A stretch of DNA of 64,000 nt from an uncultured Holophagales bacterium (GTDB lineage: Bacteria > Acidobacteriota > Thermoanaerobaculia > Multivoradales > UBA5704), in contig CAWJGT010000004.1 of NCBI GenBank assembly GCA_963842525.1, positions 96,001-160,000 on the forward strand, given 5' to 3'. This document shows, one piece after another, positions 45,241 to 52,644 of this stretch. Below the pieces are notes generated by a model. The model made no database searches. It was not told where the DNA came from and saw nothing but the letters and a program-made list of their open reading frames with translations. Each line of letters starts with the position of its first letter. The first letter of the stretch is position 1. The translations under genes were made by a program, and so were the position numbers.

Positions 45241-45324
45241 CCATCACCGGGCCGGCGAGGTGCCAGCCGATCATCGGGGATGATCGGGGATCATCGGGGC
45301 GTCCTGGCGATGATCCCGGCCAGT

Positions 45325-45545
45325 TCCCTCGCTATGGCGCCTTGCCCCGTGCCGAGGGGGCTGGCTTCCCTCGCCAGGGGATTGTGCCCTGTGCCGACGG
45401 GTGCAGCTCCCCCCGCCAGGGGGCCCAGCCCCGTTCTGAGGGGAGCAGCTCCCCTCGCCAGGGAGCCTTGCCCTGCGCCGAGGGGGCCAGCTCCCCTCGT
45501 CATGGGGTGTTGCCCTGCGCCAAGGGGGTCGGTTCCCCTCGGCGG
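45325..45545. repeat. 42-bp (2x21) degenerate tandem array, about 5 units
   Basis: Unit close to AGCTCCCCTCGCCAGGGAGCCTTGCCCTGCGCCGAGGGGGCC. Confidence 0.8.
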
Positions 45546-45888
45546 CCCGGGTGGCCTCGGTGGCATGGCCCTGGCCCCACCAGCGCCGCGCGAGAATCCC
45601 GGCCAGCTCGAATCCCGGCCAGCCTTCCGGCTCGGAGAAGCCGACCATGCCAAGGAAGGCGCCGGTCTCTTTCTGCTCCAACGCCCACATGCCGGGCCTG
45701 CCGAGCTGCCAGTGGCCCAGGAGGAATGCCAGGTGCCTCCAGGAGCGGCCACGGTCCCAGGGCCCGCCCAGGTAGCGCATCACCTCGGGGTCCCCGTTCA
45801 TGGCGGCGTAGTCTTCGAAGTCGCTTTCCTGGATGGGCCGCAGCCAGAGGCGTTCTGTTGCCAGGGTCGGGATCACAAGACTGTCCAT
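45540..45888 (-). pseudogene. RimJ/RimL-type GNAT acetyltransferase, C-terminus lost
   Basis: IPTLATERLWLRP...DPEVMRYL...WWGQGHATEATRAA, after which the frame reads into the repeat array; no N-x-x-S...LG motif. Confidence 0.75.
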
Positions 45889-45909
45889 GGATGCTCCTCC
45901 TTTCTTGCG

Positions 45910-46066
45910 TTGTCCCGACTCTGGCAAAGGACAGACGGCCCTGGGGGTGACGTTTTCAGGTCATCTGGTCAGTGGCTGATCGGGCGCTTGTCCCGGCTCT
46001 GGCAAAGGGGCAGACTGCCCCGGGGGTGCTCTGTTTCTGACATCTGGTCAATGGCTGACCAGACGC
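45910..46066. promoter_or_regulatory. Tandem duplication of about 78 bp containing the palindrome TCTGGTCA-N5-TGACCAGA
   Basis: Two units TTGTCCCG.CTCTGGCAAAGG..CAGAC.GCCC.GGGGGTG...CATCTGGTCA.TGGCTGA; perfect IR at 46043-46063. The regulatory role is inferred. Confidence 0.55.
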
Positions 46067-46094
46067 CTCTCCGCCCCCGGAAAGGATCTGTCCC

Positions 46095-46280
46095 ATGATG
46101 CGTGTCGTGCTTCTGGCGCTCGCGCTGGCGTTGGGTGGAGGAGCGTTTCATTTCGGTAGCTTCCTGGACCTGGTGTCCGCCTTCTGGGCCGCTGATCAGG
46201 TGGATGCGGGCAACCATGTCGACCCCAACGGCGCAACAGCCACGGGCGACGCGGGTAACATTCTTGACCCGGACGGCTGA
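46095..46280 (+). CDS. Small secreted peptide precursor with two DAGNxxDPxG repeats
   Basis: AAAGGA SD; hydrophobic N-terminus; DAGNHVDPNG and C-terminal DAGNILDPDG. Confidence 0.7.
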   Translation: MMRVVLLALALALGGGAFHFGSFLDLVSAFWAADQVDAGNHVDPNGATATGDAGNILDPDG

Positions 46281-46380
46281 CGGCTCGCAGTACCGGGGTT
46301 CGAGCACTCTCTTCTCTTAGGGGGCCACTTTCGCCCCCTCTTTCCGATAAGCTGCAAAGACAGACTTGACGGAGGGCGGG

Positions 46381-47939
46381 ATGAGCCGGCATTTCAGCCG
46401 TGAAGCTCTGTTGCAGCTCCTCAGCGGGCAGGCCGGCGAGGTAGAGACGGCGCGCGCCATCCGCCACATGGTGCAGTGCCGCCGCTGCCGCGTGGTCGCG
46501 GCCGGGTGCCTGGCTCAAGAGAAGTTGGGCGCGAGGCCGCCAGTCGGCCCCACGGATACTCGCAACGCGTTCGTGACACTCCTTGAGGCGGAGGCAAGCG
46601 GCGGGTCGAAAACCTGAAGGCTCGAGGCTGGTGGGCCGAGATCCGCGATCTCAGCCCGGCAGAGCAGGCCACGAAGATCCGCTCCACCACGGCCCTGCAG
46701 AGCCTGGCAGTGTTCGAAACGATCCTGGCCGACGCGAAAGCTGCCGGGCGCTCGGACCCTTTCGCCGGAGAGAGTATGGTGCGCGCCGCCTGGATGGTGG
46801 CGGATCTCCTCCCTGAGTCCCGGTATCCACGGACGCTGAAAAACGACCTGCGTGGGCAGGCCTTGACGGTTGTCGCGAATTGTCGGCGGCTCGCTGCGAA
46901 TTTTCCGGGCTCGAAAGCGGCGATCGAGGAGGCGCGGCGGTCGCTTGCCCAGGGGACGGGAGATCCGGGATTGGAAGGAGGACTCCTCTCCATCCACTGC
47001 TCGTTGTGTACCGATCTCGGCGATTTCGAGAAGGCACTGGCCCATGTCCTTCGAGCCGTGGCGATTTTCCGAGAGCTGGAGGACTGGCAAGAGGTCGCGC
47101 ACAACATGGTCAAGGAGGCCGGCTGCCTGTTTGCTGCCGCCCGGCCGGCGGAAGCGCTCGAAACAGCCCAATTCGCCCTCGAGCGCATGCCTCCGCAGGA
47201 GCTCCGGCTCCGTGTCTTGGCGAAACTGATCCTTGTGGAGAGCCTGGTCGTTCTGGAGCGCCCCCTGGAGGCTCTTCCCTATTTCAGCGAAGCCAAAGCA
47301 CTTTGCGAGCAGGCCGATCCAAGGACGCGCTTGCTAGCTGATCCGATTGAGGCGCAGCTTCTGGACAGTCTCGGCTGCGCGCGAGAGTCCGAAAAGCTCT
47401 TCCGTCGTGCGATCAAAGCCTTCTTCGATCACGAGTTCTACAAGCAAGCCTTCCTCACTCTGCTGACCCTCTTCGAATGCCTGGTCCGGAGAGGTGCGCT
47501 CGGCAAGGCCGCGGCCCTCTGCGAGGAGGCGATCGCCGCGACATCCCAGGCCGGAGAAGCCTGCAACGAGCAGATCCGCCGCGCCTGGGAGGAGCTTCTG
47601 GCCGCCGTGCGCGTTCGCCAGCTCAGCGAGAGCGAGCTGATCCAGGCCCGCCAGTATCTCGTGCGCAACTGGAGCGTGGCGGGCGGTGTGTTCGTCCTTC
47701 CGTCGTTAGAGACCATCCTCTCCATCCCCAGCTCACCACCCGAGCTGCCGGCGCCGCCGCCCCTGCCTGCGGCCGATGAGGCGGCTCCCAACAGCTTTCA
47801 GGCAGCGCGCGAAGAATACGACCGGCGGCTCGTTGCAGCGGCCCTGGAGCGGTCCGGCGGCAACCTCAGCGAGGCCAGCCGCCTTCTCCGTATCTCCCGC
47901 AATACGCTCAAGGCGAGAATGCGCCTGTACGGGCTGTGA
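46381..47939 (+). CDS. zf-HC2-like zinc finger - TPR - Fis-type HTH protein (frameshift about 46598)
   Basis: MSRHFSREALL...RHMVQCRRC; continues in the shifted frame VENLKARGWWAEI into helical repeats; Pro linker; ALERSGGNLSEASRLLRISRNTL. Confidence 0.75.
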
Positions 47940-49844: not shown

Positions 49845-49874
49845 GTTAGATACTCTAAATGGGAGGCCGTGTCT

Positions 49875-50252
49875 ATGGCAAGACGGACGCGCTGGATTGG
49901 ACAGGCAGTCTTGGTCGCACTGGTTCTGGCAGCCACCGAAGGTGCCGCGTGGGCGTGGTGCGGCACTTGTCAAGTGTGCAGAGAGAAGACGATCATTACG
50001 ATTCCCGCTGACTTCTGCGGGGTAGCGAATGACGAGAATGGGTCGATGTGCTGCAGCGAGTTCGATTCCGGCATTGGGACGTACTGCTATGAGTCTGGTT
50101 CCGCGTGCTACGGCATCATTGTCGATGACGGCGGCGGAACCGGTGGCGGTGGTGGTGGTGGTGGCGGTAGCTGCACGTATCAGAACGGCTGGTGTCCTGC
50201 CGAATGCATGAACTGCAGCGGCGGCGGCGTCGGATGGCCGCCGCGGATCTAG
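49875..50252 (+). CDS. Small secreted 12-Cys protein with poly-Gly linker
   Basis: GGGAGG SD; signal peptide ending AWA; 8-Cys domain, Gly run, then C-x6-CPAECxxC. Confidence 0.75.
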   Translation: MARRTRWIGQAVLVALVLAATEGAAWAWCGTCQVCREKTIITIPADFCGVANDENGSMCCSEFDSGIGTYCYESGSACYGIIVDDGGGTGGGGGGGGGSCTYQNGWCPAECMNCSGGGVGWPPRI

Positions 50253-50349: not shown

Positions 50350-52644
50350 TTGAAGACGGTTGCTTCTTTCCTTGCGTTCTGGGCAAGTGTTGCAGCTATT
50401 GGCTGGTCTCCGGCTGCTGTTGGTGAGCCGCCCCCAGGCGCTCCTCCAAGTTCCGCCACTGCCAAGATCCACGTCACGCTGGTTTCAACGGCAGGGACGC
50501 CTTTAGCGGGGGAAGGATTTGTCGTTTTCAAGCCGCCCGCATCTGCTACTCCCGTCACCCCCGTGGTAGTGCCTACCAAGTTGCCTGGATACGTAACGGC
50601 CGAGTTGCCCGTCGGCTCTCAGTGGCTTCTGTTTGCGGATTTCCCGGGCTACTTCGCGGCGACGTCTGTTCTTCAAGTGCCACTGGCCGATCCTATGGAG
50701 GTGCACATAACGCTGCGGCCGGCCGGCACGCTGACCGGTAAGTTCACCCTCGAGGGCAAAGAGAAATTGCCCGAGAGCTTGGAAATTCGATTCGAGCCTA
50801 CCCGCGAGACTCTTCCCAAGAAGCAGGACATACCTGCAGGATCAGCCCCATGTGCCGTAGGCCCGTCGGGAGACTGGCGGTGCCGACTGCCTGCGGGGCG
50901 GCTCGACATCGCTCTGCATCCGAAGGGGTTCGTTCCCCACTACCTCTTGAATATCAACATCCCGGCCAGCGAGACGAGCTCGCTCGGGTCGCGGAAGCTC
51001 ATTCGGGGCGCTTCGGTGTCAGGATGGATCATGCGGGAGGACGGTACGCCGGCGGAGAAATGCCGGGTACGTCTGGAGCCGAAGACGGCACCAGGCCGCC
51101 CAAACGACCCCGTACTGGAGTTCCTTCGGGCAGTTGCCAGCGAGGTGCCGTGCCAGGGAAAGGGGTTTTTCCAGTTCTCGGCGGTGGGTGCTGGTTCGTA
51201 CGCGCTCGTTGCGCACGAGAACGATGCACGGGCCCAGATGTCACCCGTCGAAGTTTGGAATAACGCAGAATCGAGACTCACGGAGCCCATCGTGCTTCGG
51301 CGTCCCGTCGACTTTGAGGTGACGCTCTCTCCGCCGACAGACTGGCTCGGACAACCCTGGCGGGTCGAGGCGCTTCGGGCGAGCGAGTATCGAGCAGGAT
51401 GGGAGGAACCTTCGTACCGAGCCGAGGCTACCCGGGACGGACGCCTGCGGCTCCCCAAACAGTCGCCGGGCCGGTTCTGGATCACGGTCTACGACCGGCT
51501 CGGTAACGCAGTCTTCTCAGACCCGCATGTGGATCTCTCCGCCCCGTCGGTACCGTACCCGATCACCCTTGACTTGCTCTGGGTCGAAGGCAGGATACAC
51601 TTTGGCGACGAGCCCTTGACCGGACGTCTCTTTTTCGGTGGGCGAAGCGGTGCGACTACGATCGAGATGACATCCGACGAGAACGGCCGCTTCGAGGGGC
51701 CGCTCCCGAAGCCGGGCGCCTGGCGGGTGGACATTGAAGGTGCCGAGCCCCGCTTAAGGACATCTGTGAAAGTAGAGGTGAAGCCGAAGGGTGATCGCGC
51801 ATCGTTGGCGATCGAATTGCCCAACACCAACGTCTACGGGCGAGTGGTCGATCCTTCGGGAAAGCCAGCACCGGGCGCGGAGGTCACCCTCAGCTCGACG
51901 GTCAGCACCATCGCCACCAAGACCGATGGAAAAGGAGAGTTCAAGATTCGAGCCTTCCCGAAAGGGACCAATGAGTTGTCCTCGGCGCGAGCGGCTGCAG
52001 AAGGAGGCCGCGAGGTCAGCGACCTCTACAGGTTTGAGGCGGCCGACGATTCGCCCCATGGACCAGTTGTGCTCACACTACGGCAAACGCAAGCGATTCA
52101 CGGAAGAGTTCTTGCAGCAACAGGGCCCGTGATCGGTGCAACCGTAAGTGCGTGGTCCACATCGAGCGGAGACGGGGTTGTTTCGACGGTACGCTCCGGG
52201 CTCGACGGACGTTTTGAGCTGAAGCTGCCCGCGGGAACGCAGGTCGTGCAAGCTGTTGTGAGCCCCCCGGGAGGAGCGCTCAAAGCCTATGAGGTCAACG
52301 TTTCGAGTGACGCCGAGATCCTGTTTCAGGTGGAATCGTCAGGTGGCGAAGTGGTCATGGATCTCGGCAAGAGCGGGCCGCCTGACGGCGGGATTCTCGT
52401 GGTCTGGCAGGATGATATTGGGATTCCTCTCGGAACGCTCGTTCGTTGGACGGAAGGGCATGGGGTCCGTTTTCAGCAGGGAAGCCAAGTACACATTCCT
52501 CAATTGGCGCCGGGCTACTATGCGGTGTGCGTCGGCACTGCAGCGATCGTGGCTTCGAGTGACATCGATGCATGGAAAACCCGAGGAAGGTGTGCGTCCG
52601 GCTACCTCGCAGCAGCCTCTACGCTCGATTTACGTCTGCCTTGA
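50350..52644 (+). CDS. Secreted protein with carboxypeptidase-regulatory-like beta-sandwich repeats
   Basis: Signal peptide; repeated motifs such as GRVVDPSGKPAPGAEV, TDGKGEF, SDENGRF. Confidence 0.75.
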   Translation: MKTVASFLAFWASVAAIGWSPAAVGEPPPGAPPSSATAKIHVTLVSTAGTPLAGEGFVVFKPPASATPVTPVVVPTKLPGYVTAELPVGSQWLLFADFPGYFAATSVLQVPLADPMEVHITLRPAGTLTGKFTLEGKEKLPESLEIRFEPTRETLPKKQDIPAGSAPCAVGPSGDWRCRLPAGRLDIALHPKGFVPHYLLNINIPASETSSLGSRKLIRGASVSGWIMREDGTPAEKCRVRLEPKTAPGRPNDPVLEFLRAVASEVPCQGKGFFQFSAVGAGSYALVAHENDARAQMSPVEVWNNAESRLTEPIVLRRPVDFEVTLSPPTDWLGQPWRVEALRASEYRAGWEEPSYRAEATRDGRLRLPKQSPGRFWITVYDRLGNAVFSDPHVDLSAPSVPYPITLDLLWVEGRIHFGDEPLTGRLFFGGRSGATTIEMTSDENGRFEGPLPKPGAWRVDIEGAEPRLRTSVKVEVKPKGDRASLAIELPNTNVYGRVVDPSGKPAPGAEVTLSSTVSTIATKTDGKGEFKIRAFPKGTNELSSARAAAEGGREVSDLYRFEAADDSPHGPVVLTLRQTQAIHGRVLAATGPVIGATVSAWSTSSGDGVVSTVRSGLDGRFELKLPAGTQVVQAVVSPPGGALKAYEVNVSSDAEILFQVESSGGEVVMDLGKSGPPDGGILVVWQDDIGIPLGTLVRWTEGHGVRFQQGSQVHIPQLAPGYYAVCVGTAAIVASSDIDAWKTRGRCASGYLAAASTLDLRLP

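Follow-up and report, generated by a model that had tools for sequence, protein, structure and literature searches.

The 64,000-nucleotide stretch of DNA analysed here (the window) comes from an uncultured Holophagales bacterium of the Thermoanaerobaculia, whose genome comprises 9.95 Mb in 34 contigs with 67.8% G+C. At 46095-47939 the window carries a two-gene cassette: a short gene for a putatively exported peptide precursor and, 100 bp 3' of it, a gene for a regulator with a zinc-ligand domain, a tetratricopeptide repeat (TPR) solenoid and a Fis-type helix-turn-helix (HTH) (Table 1). An earlier, sequence-only reading of this DNA had proposed that the two genes form a peptide-signalling pair analogous to the RRNPP systems.

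The precursor, MMRVVLLALALALGGGAFHFGSFLDLVSAFWAADQVDAGNHVDPNGATATGDAGNILDPDG, showed every feature that the sequence-only reading had listed: a 61-residue open reading frame (ORF) with a Shine-Dalgarno sequence, a hydrophobic leader and two 10-residue repeats, the second at the exact C-terminus. Its N-terminus reached a Kyte-Doolittle 15-residue maximum of 2.41; exported leaders were judged throughout on hydrophobicity and AxA-like sites alone. A Pfam scan of the precursor returned no match, and neither Pfam nor NCBIfam holds a model that fits it. The precursor matched a profile of its paralogs (see below) at E 4e-10, and by this sign the ORF is more than a chance frame. Between the window and the orthologous locus L053, the peptide genes differed at 26 third codon positions versus 17 and 8 at the other two, and about half of the altered codons were synonymous. 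The concentration of differences at third positions indicates that the frame is translated and constrained, as expected of a real gene under purifying selection.

Table 1. Features of the cassette and its immediate surroundings, in window coordinates.
Feature	Position	Strand	Description
GNAT, Acetyltransf_3	45271-45927	-	divergent from the peptide gene; syntenic in 6/6 orthologous loci
Two tandem copies of a ~79-bp element	45910-46072	+	in the region shared by the divergent GNAT and peptide genes; TRF period 79, 1.9 copies
Palindrome CTGGTCA-N5-TGACCAG	46044-46062	.	33 nt 5' of the ATG; candidate operator
Shine-Dalgarno-like GGAAAGGA	46079-46086	+	8 nt 5' of the precursor ATG; read from the sequence
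Peptide precursor, 61 aa	46095-46280	+	leader residues 1-17, helix FHFGSFLDLVSAFWAAD, two C-terminal DAGNxxDPxG units
Unit 1, DAGNHVDPNG	46203-46232	+	precursor residues 37-46
Unit 2, DAGNILDPDG	46248-46277	+	precursor residues 52-61, the protein C-terminus
Regulator, N-terminal piece, 78 aa	46381-46617	+	helical domain, candidate Zn ligands H4, H29, C33, C36 (ZAS-like); ends at a TGA made by the frameshift
Frame change, GGCGGG run	46600-46606	+	one base fewer than in the single-frame orthologs L049-L053 and L055
Regulator, remainder	46602-47939	+	long helix, TPR solenoid, Pro-rich linker, HTH_8 at nt 47808-47924
2OG-Fe(II) oxygenase, PF13640	47992-48624	+	53 bp after the regulator, same strand; single-copy in the genome

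For the second gene, about 520 residues with an HxxxCxxC motif, helical repeats and a Fis-type HTH had been proposed, with no AAA+ domain. The motif was present (H4 plus H29-x3-C33-x2-C36), and Pfam HTH_8 matched residues 367-405 of the 409-residue second piece at E 6e-10. TPR_12 and TPR_MalT matched that piece weakly, below cut-off. Pfam and NCBIfam scans of the window regulator found no AAA+ domain, the NtrC-type module for sigma-54 interaction. The single gene of the sequence-only reading, however, is split in this assembly into two frames, the second of which is open from 46587 to 47939 (listed ORF, 46710-47939). Because the regulator is read in one frame at the orthologous loci (6/6), the window must lack one base at 46600-46606. 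Five zinc-motif domains of this genome also sit in another frame than their own TPR part, and in the ortholog L055, on a 3.5-Mb contig, it is the peptide gene that is frameshifted; an assembly indel error is therefore as likely here as a real mutation. Genes of this family were often cut into frames of 200-250 residues or had the N-domain out of frame (C25:175702-176412, C22:17104-17766, L055:1880-2090). Such breaks look like long-read indel errors, so that a single frameshift, unless backed by reads, is no sign of a pseudogene.

Close relatives of the regulator (60-81% identity) were found on contigs of metagenome-assembled genomes assigned to Thermoanaerobaculia, Acidobacteriota or Holophagales. 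The peptide gene lay upstream of the regulator in six of six full-length orthologous loci, and in all six the zinc-motif domain, TPR region and HTH_8 were encoded in one frame of 512-530 residues. Orthologous peptides kept the pattern D-A-G-[NG]-x-x-D-P-[ND]-G, with two or three units per precursor. Among the scanned family members, HTH_8 was limited to this ortholog group. The Fis HTH noted by the sequence-only reading is thus a local trait and not a family-wide one.

The host genome holds many such cassettes. Searches with the window sequences gave 22 matches to the peptide at E <= 10 and 42 to the regulator at E <= 0.01, several of which adjoined each other. Two DP[NDH]G motifs spaced by 6-30 residues occurred in only 35 of 146,848 stop-to-stop frames, and in 33 of the 35 the last unit lay no more than 12 residues from the end. 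A peptide profile (A1; 18 members, E <= 1e-3) and a TPR profile (A2, E <= 1e-10), both built from this genome's own members, matched 65 and 150 frames, respectively. A TPR-family frame lay less than 1 kb from 58 of the 65 peptide frames versus 167 of 5000 random positions, which bears out the co-occurrence of short signal-peptide DPxG ORFs with TPR genes that had been put forward for checking. All frames run from stop to stop, so an overlap given as distance 0 may be an open upstream extension. Two pairs of loci were exact duplicates (C9:3995/C18:2597 and C8:907/C10:32941). A run of five consecutive TPR-family paralogs on one strand was also observed at C9:424157-434063, with a weak peptide-profile frame at 427525-428082.

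The precursors shared a common plan of basic N-terminus, hydrophobic core, AxA-like site and Trp-rich helix (LWxxLxxxW), followed by two to four units of [DE]-x-G-x-x-[ILMV]-D-P-x-G. The leader maximum was at least 2.02 in all 18 profile members. At least two units were present in 44 of the 65 precursors (22 with two, 21 with three and one with four), and 43 of these 44 were non-identical. Over the six residues before DP, identity was 0.61 between units of the same precursor (88 pairs) versus 0.32 between precursors (5690 pairs), a value reached in none of 1000 shuffles. At position -5 the two values were 0.58 within and 0.12 between, and at position -3 they were 0.69 and 0.25. Eighteen of 43 precursors ended exactly in DPxG. 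This comparison of units shows that the repeats are homogenised inside precursors and diversified between them. Such likeness within precursors would be expected if each gave rise by cleavage to several copies of a short peptide specific to that paralog. Tandemly duplicated Phr pheromones in RRNPPA propeptides are documented in a passage of PMC11343458.

Two sub-types of cassette were distinguished, counted after identical loci were collapsed and with the zinc motif defined as [HC]-x3-4-C-x2-C. Cys-loop peptides (C-x-x-D-P-x-G-x-C) were paired with an XRE-HTH-TPR gene on the opposite strand in 16 cases, with a zinc-motif domain in another frame in one, and with a partner showing no N-domain in six. 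Plain peptides were followed on the same strand by a TPR protein with the zinc motif in 17 cases; in four the motif was in another frame, in 11 the partner showed no N-domain, and seven had no TPR gene within 1 kb. The window cassette belongs to this plain, zinc-motif sub-type. With a single crossed case, peptide sub-type and regulator sub-type were shown to go together, as judged from gene arrangement. Pfam HTH_3/HTH_31 was found in six of six scanned XRE-type proteins and TPR models in 20 of 21 scanned paralogs, while L036 gave HTH matches alone at E <= 0.01. Small separate HTH_3 ORFs were present in five of 20 loci; those at L018:3832-4143, L024:3530-3934 and L027:620-1081, of the XRE type, adjoin zinc-motif-type cassettes and may supply the DNA-binding part in trans.

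The two genes also diverged together. In a maximum-likelihood tree of 40 TPR cores, 12 of 16 regulators paired with Cys-loop peptides fell in one clade (100/99), and the peptide label required four changes on the tree versus 12.7 when shuffled, with none of 500 shuffles as low. The window regulator was placed beside C9:601566 on a branch of 2.08. TPR distance correlated with unit distance over all pairs (Mantel r 0.35; reached by 0 of 2000 permutations), within the Cys-loop sub-type (r 0.45; 1 of 2000) and within the plain sub-type (r 0.28; 40 of 2000). These correlations, which bear on the peptide/receptor co-variation that the sequence-only reading had proposed to test, show co-inheritance of the pair and fall short of showing binding.

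Outside the host, the cassette was concentrated in one family. Peptide profile A1 matched 18 of 18 genomes of the same family (f1) at E <= 0.001, with 6-59 matches each, and four of 12 genomes from other families of the order at the same threshold. Across the class, five of 121 genomes were matched at E <= 1e-5: the host genome, all three others of f1, and one of the remaining 117. At E <= 1e-8 the host genome stood alone among 151 genomes of the phylum, a sample without other f1 genomes. A plain-type profile (A6) matched 20 of 25 f1 genomes at E <= 1e-8. Arrangement in other genera was scored on 28 loci with 30 peptide frames, two peptides being counted twice through the overlap of L064 and L081. 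Thirteen of the 20 plain frames were followed by a same-strand zinc-motif TPR gene; two faced the XRE type, one faced the zinc-motif type and four had no TPR gene within 700 bp. Nine of the ten Cys-loop frames faced an opposite-strand TPR gene. In further loci from 11 other genomes, the peptide abutted TPR genes in 11 of 11. Together with the six orthologous loci, these results indicate that the DPxG ORFs are conserved and linked to TPR genes.

In public protein data we found at least 603 relatives of the peptide among 8000 scored candidates. Among the best 120, every given name was 'hypothetical protein', organism names, where given, were Thermoanaerobaculia, and all had at least two units; 90 were of the Cys-loop type and 30 were not. 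The TPR profile matched 5253 cluster representatives at E <= 1e-30. A search of the ESM Atlas returned unnamed Acidobacteriota clusters alone, with a score of 0.77, below the meaningful level. In P0001-P0006, the top database matches to the TPR profile (723-1159 residues), the TPR-family module was present twice, and some of these proteins also had an HTH_31 in their interior. They probably reflect fusion of adjacent paralogs or gene calling that ran through from one gene into the next. A full-text literature search, supplements aside, found nothing on RRNPP systems in Acidobacteriota and nothing that links an anti-sigma factor, TPRs and zinc binding with a secreted peptide in Acidobacteria; the literature it returned on comparable systems concerned Gram-positive systems only.

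To examine the regulator fold, an AlphaFold2 model was built for an ortholog from a 127-row alignment (pLDDT 88.3, pTM 0.76). In the model, residues 7-49 form three short helices and residues 59-88 a long one; helix pairs span 93-429, and the stretch 432-455 is a disordered linker ahead of the HTH (470-515). The best Foldseek matches were LGN (E 4e-5) and Rap proteins (E ~1e-4). VIA-align placed LGN first, with Z 23.5 over 293 aligned residues, next to the phage phi105 Rap with peptide (Z 23.4; rmsd 4.6, 312 residues aligned, model residues 32-436), RapJ-PhrC (Z 23.0), RapF-PhrF (Z 22.5), the pLS20 Rap-Phr* complex (Z 21.9), NprR (Z 21.6 apo, 21.1 with NprX) and MalT domain III (Z 19.6). These tied scores show a modelled fold suitable for holding a peptide and do not imply relatedness. 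No consistent membrane segment was detected: the median of maximal hydropathy was 1.31, the 14 of 127 proteins that reached 1.6 did so at scattered places, and the window regulator and L049 had maxima of 1.53 and 1.56. The model and the hydropathy values thus point to a cytoplasmic receptor with a TPR-type solenoid.

The N-terminal domain resembled the zinc-binding anti-sigma (ZAS) proteins ChrR and RsrA (zf-HC2). Like theirs, it is a small helical domain, with the ligand series H-x24-H-x3(4)-C-x2-C where helices 2 and 3 meet, and it fits the ZAS pattern H/C-x(23-26)-H-x3-C-x2-C. ChrR and RsrA use such His and Cys residues as zinc ligands. H4, G16, C33 and C36 were invariant and H29 was kept in 12 of 13 sequences, although many paralogs have x4 in place of x3. 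The zinc finger of the sequence-only reading therefore stands as a motif, but as a Pfam domain it does not: zf-HC2 scored 14.2 bits in the window against a gathering cut-off of 22.2, and across 49 proteins (E <= 0.001) the highest scores were 29.6 (P0005) and 21.4 bits (P0025), with one of 49 above the cut-off. Modelled alone (pLDDT 82.7), the domain had no fold match at E <= 0.001; ChrR-SigE ranked 2-4 at E 0.7 (probability 0.8, 20-21% identity). It departs from ZAS proteins in its fusion with a TPR solenoid and HTH and in having no adjoining sigma gene.

Upstream of the peptide gene, the second copy of the 79-bp element ends in CTGGTCAATGGCTGACCAG (46044-46062), the palindrome of Table 1. 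Its half-sites were kept, with a differing spacer, in the orthologs L049, L051, L052 and L053, and a search for the pattern gave no match in L050 and L055. The palindrome is likely an operator for a dimeric DNA-binding protein, possibly bound by the HTH_8 of the adjoining regulator. A motif scan with the tested motifs of the 79-bp element found no other site in the genome. A sigma-70 promoter scan found none upstream, and the one terminator-like site within the element was at chance level. A sigma-54 promoter suggested by a TGGCA in the element was rejected by eye, its GG-N10-GC spacing being unfit.

On this comparative evidence, the question whether a predicted exported repeat peptide and a cytoplasmic TPR regulator form a real, conserved and massively expanded two-gene unit can be considered settled in favour of such a unit. 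Its layout resembles that of the RRNPP(A) systems (Rap-Phr, NprR-NprX, PlcR-PapR, Rgg-SHP, PrgX, AimR-AimP). In both, a short exported propeptide, here with a predicted leader and encoded by an adjoining small gene, is combined with a cytoplasmic TPR receptor, paralogs are numerous within a genome, and one propeptide can carry tandemly repeated candidate pheromones (a passage of PMC11343458). The Cys-loop sister sub-type has the classical XRE-HTH plus TPR architecture, and the model of the window-type TPR region scored Z 21-23 to Rap and NprR. The differences are also clear. RRNPP(A) systems are described from Bacillota and their phages, whereas the host of the cassette is a diderm of the Acidobacteriota; the peptide gene lies upstream in the plain, zinc-motif sub-type; the units have about ten residues and a fixed DPxG end; and where those systems have an N-terminal XRE HTH or the three-helix Rap bundle as output, the window protein carries a zinc-ligand domain at its N-terminus and a Fis HTH at its C-terminus. 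The cassette is thus RRNPP-like in layout, departs from these systems in sequence family and output-domain order, and lies outside their Bacillota range. Passages of PMC9765709 and PMC10075063 on RRNPP systems make no mention of Acidobacteria, and a passage of the latter contrasts peptide signals read by TPR proteins with the small-molecule signals of Proteobacteria and Actinobacteria.

Two other systems offer partial likenesses. The eukaryotic TPR domain of LGN/Pins winds as a superhelix around an extended peptide. It belongs to an unrelated organism and has an unrelated function, and the match indicates no more than that such a solenoid is large enough to accommodate a peptide. In cyanobacteria, which are diderm, the gene-encoded short RGSGR peptides of PatS and HetN act on the cytoplasmic transcription factor HetR, but these differ from the cassette in having no TPR receptor, Sec leader, paralog expansion or adjacency rule.

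RRNPP-like signalling offers the most economical mechanism for the cassette in our tentative judgement, which stops somewhat short of even confidence. A Sec-type leader would export the 61-residue precursor, which would then lose its pro-region, the Trp-rich helix kept by every paralog. The tandem units would be released as [DE]-x-G-x-x-hydrophobic-D-P-x-G peptides, with positions -5 and -3 (here A and N) as a paralog-specific signature. Released peptides would re-enter the cell, bind the concave face of the cognate TPR solenoid and switch the output domains of the regulator. Peptide uptake genes of generic Opp and OPT types are present in the genome (three SBP_bac_5 matches, and six OPT matches in about three loci). 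One output here would be the Fis-type HTH, with the conserved palindrome 5' of the peptide gene as its probable site of action, which would amount to autoregulation; a second may be the N-terminal zinc-ligand domain, in the manner of a ZAS anti-sigma factor. In this chain the cutting of the precursor, the return of the peptides, their binding to the solenoid and the site on which the outputs act are inferred. We put it at nearly an even chance that the locus is one cassette of a lineage-specific set of RRNPP-like peptide-receptor pairs. The analogy drawn by the sequence-only reading held for the conserved unit (58/65 in the genome, 6/6 orthologous loci) and the Rap/NprR-like fold, but not for sequence family.

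Several observations weigh against signalling of this kind. No described RRNPP family model matched: Pfam returned generic TPR models and NCBIfam weak NsdA/AfsR/HaaT TPR matches, and generic TPR solenoids (LGN, subunits of the anaphase-promoting complex) scored like the Rap proteins. Co-duplication of neighbouring genes alone could yield the Mantel and tree signals. Seven of 65 peptide frames had no TPR gene inside 1 kb, and the window copy of the regulator is both frameshifted and on a long branch of the TPR tree. A diderm needs an outer-membrane route for peptide entry, and none was linked to the cassette. Disulfides of the Cys-loop peptides would form outside the cell and be lost inside, so an extracellular role fits these peptides better.

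The last point would suit an arrangement in which the TPR protein regulates the adjoining gene in response to some other signal and the peptide is an extracellular or periplasmic effector that never meets it. We consider this unlikely, although it is the strongest of the alternatives, and the same doubtful standing is given to the effectors proposed: a bacteriocin-like, defensin-like, metal-binding or surface peptide. The conserved palindrome 5' of the peptide gene and the divergent transcription of the XRE-type members agree with such regulation, Cys-bounded loops suit an oxidising compartment, and diversifying paralogs are typical of bacteriocins as well. Two database relatives touched Pfam Defensin_5, but the match was short and local (11-13 residues, about at cut-off). 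The DPxG unit does not fit what we take to be the consensus of EF-hand or thrombospondin-type calcium loops. Immunity, export or lysis genes were not linked to the cassette among 41 flanking ORFs in 20 loci. An effector explains the one-to-one pairing of tens of paralogs with a sensor of peptide-binding type less easily than signalling does, and leaves the homogenisation of units within precursors unexplained.

The same 41 flanking ORFs bear on a further alternative, that the precursor is a multi-core ribosomally synthesized and post-translationally modified peptide (RiPP). The helix would then be a leader for maturases encoded elsewhere, the units modified cores (e.g. at Asp, Asn, Pro or Cys) and the TPR protein a regulator or scaffold. 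A conserved leader-like helix followed by two to four variable repeated cores fits this plan. The flanking ORFs gave one LanC-like match, in one of the 20 loci, and one Sigma70_r2 match and were otherwise heterogeneous, with no recurring maturase, leader protease or other peptidase, ABC exporter or sigma gene. The 2-oxoglutarate (2OG)-Fe(II) oxygenase that follows the window regulator was considered as a peptide-modifying partner and rejected: it was syntenic in none of six orthologous loci, which places it outside the cassette. No Pfam or NCBIfam precursor model matched, and Sec-type leaders are unusual for RiPP precursors. The RiPP alternative, which the sequence-only reading had kept beside its own proposal, is weakened by these results, and we regard it as improbable.

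It is similarly improbable that the TPR protein holds the unexported precursor, whose export would free or block the zinc-motif domain or HTH as a secretion-coupled anti-sigma or regulator switch in the way of type III secretion chaperone-regulators. In its favour, synthesis of both partners is cytoplasmic, the N-domain has the ZAS ligand pattern and the ChrR ranking described above, and eight of 42 Sigma70_r2 (sigma-70-family) genes lay less than 1.5 kb from a TPR-family frame, but only one of 65 peptide frames lay that close to a sigma gene, with none beside the window pair, the ChrR match was insignificant, zf-HC2 rarely exceeded its cut-off, and Sec substrates are exported fast. The one place in the genome where sigma genes interleave with the cassette is C34:43598-47867, in the order sigma-70-family gene, TPR paralog, peptide-like frame, second sigma gene and TPR paralog.

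Gene-encoded peptide signals read by cytoplasmic TPR proteins are regarded as characteristic of Bacillota and of the mobile elements found in them. Extended from the single locus to the family, RRNPP-like signalling would give each cell of one soil family of Thermoanaerobaculia tens of private peptide channels, in which exported multi-copy peptides come back into the cytoplasm and gate cognate TPR receptors that have XRE, Fis or ZAS-type outputs. We offer this broader proposal as a possibility, with clearly less confidence than the reading of the locus itself. If true, RRNPP-like peptide quorum sensing would for the first time be known from a diderm phylum, and an anti-sigma-like switch gated by a peptide would likewise be a first. 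Such signalling would open up peptide communication in a dominant, uncultured soil group, provide a natural library of orthogonal peptide-sensor pairs and make peptide import by a diderm a directly testable question. Even if the peptide were an effector that never meets the TPR protein, the cassettes would constitute a large unnamed family, as the names of the 120 best relatives attest.

Further features were noted around the cassette. The GNAT gene shares its intergenic region with the 79-bp repeats, and a 15-nt arm in its 5' end (45858-45872) pairs with both copies. A GC-rich tandem array of palindromic units (45318-45541; period 42, 5.2 copies, also scored as period 84) separates a MobA-like gene from the 3' part of the GNAT frame; it creates long spurious open frames on both strands and may be an element like the repetitive extragenic palindromes (REP-like). 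Farther downstream, the gene directly 5' of one for a 764-residue protein with CarboxypepD_reg domains (50350-52644) encodes a small exported protein of 127 residues that is rich in Cys, includes a Gly run and matches no Pfam model (49869-50252).

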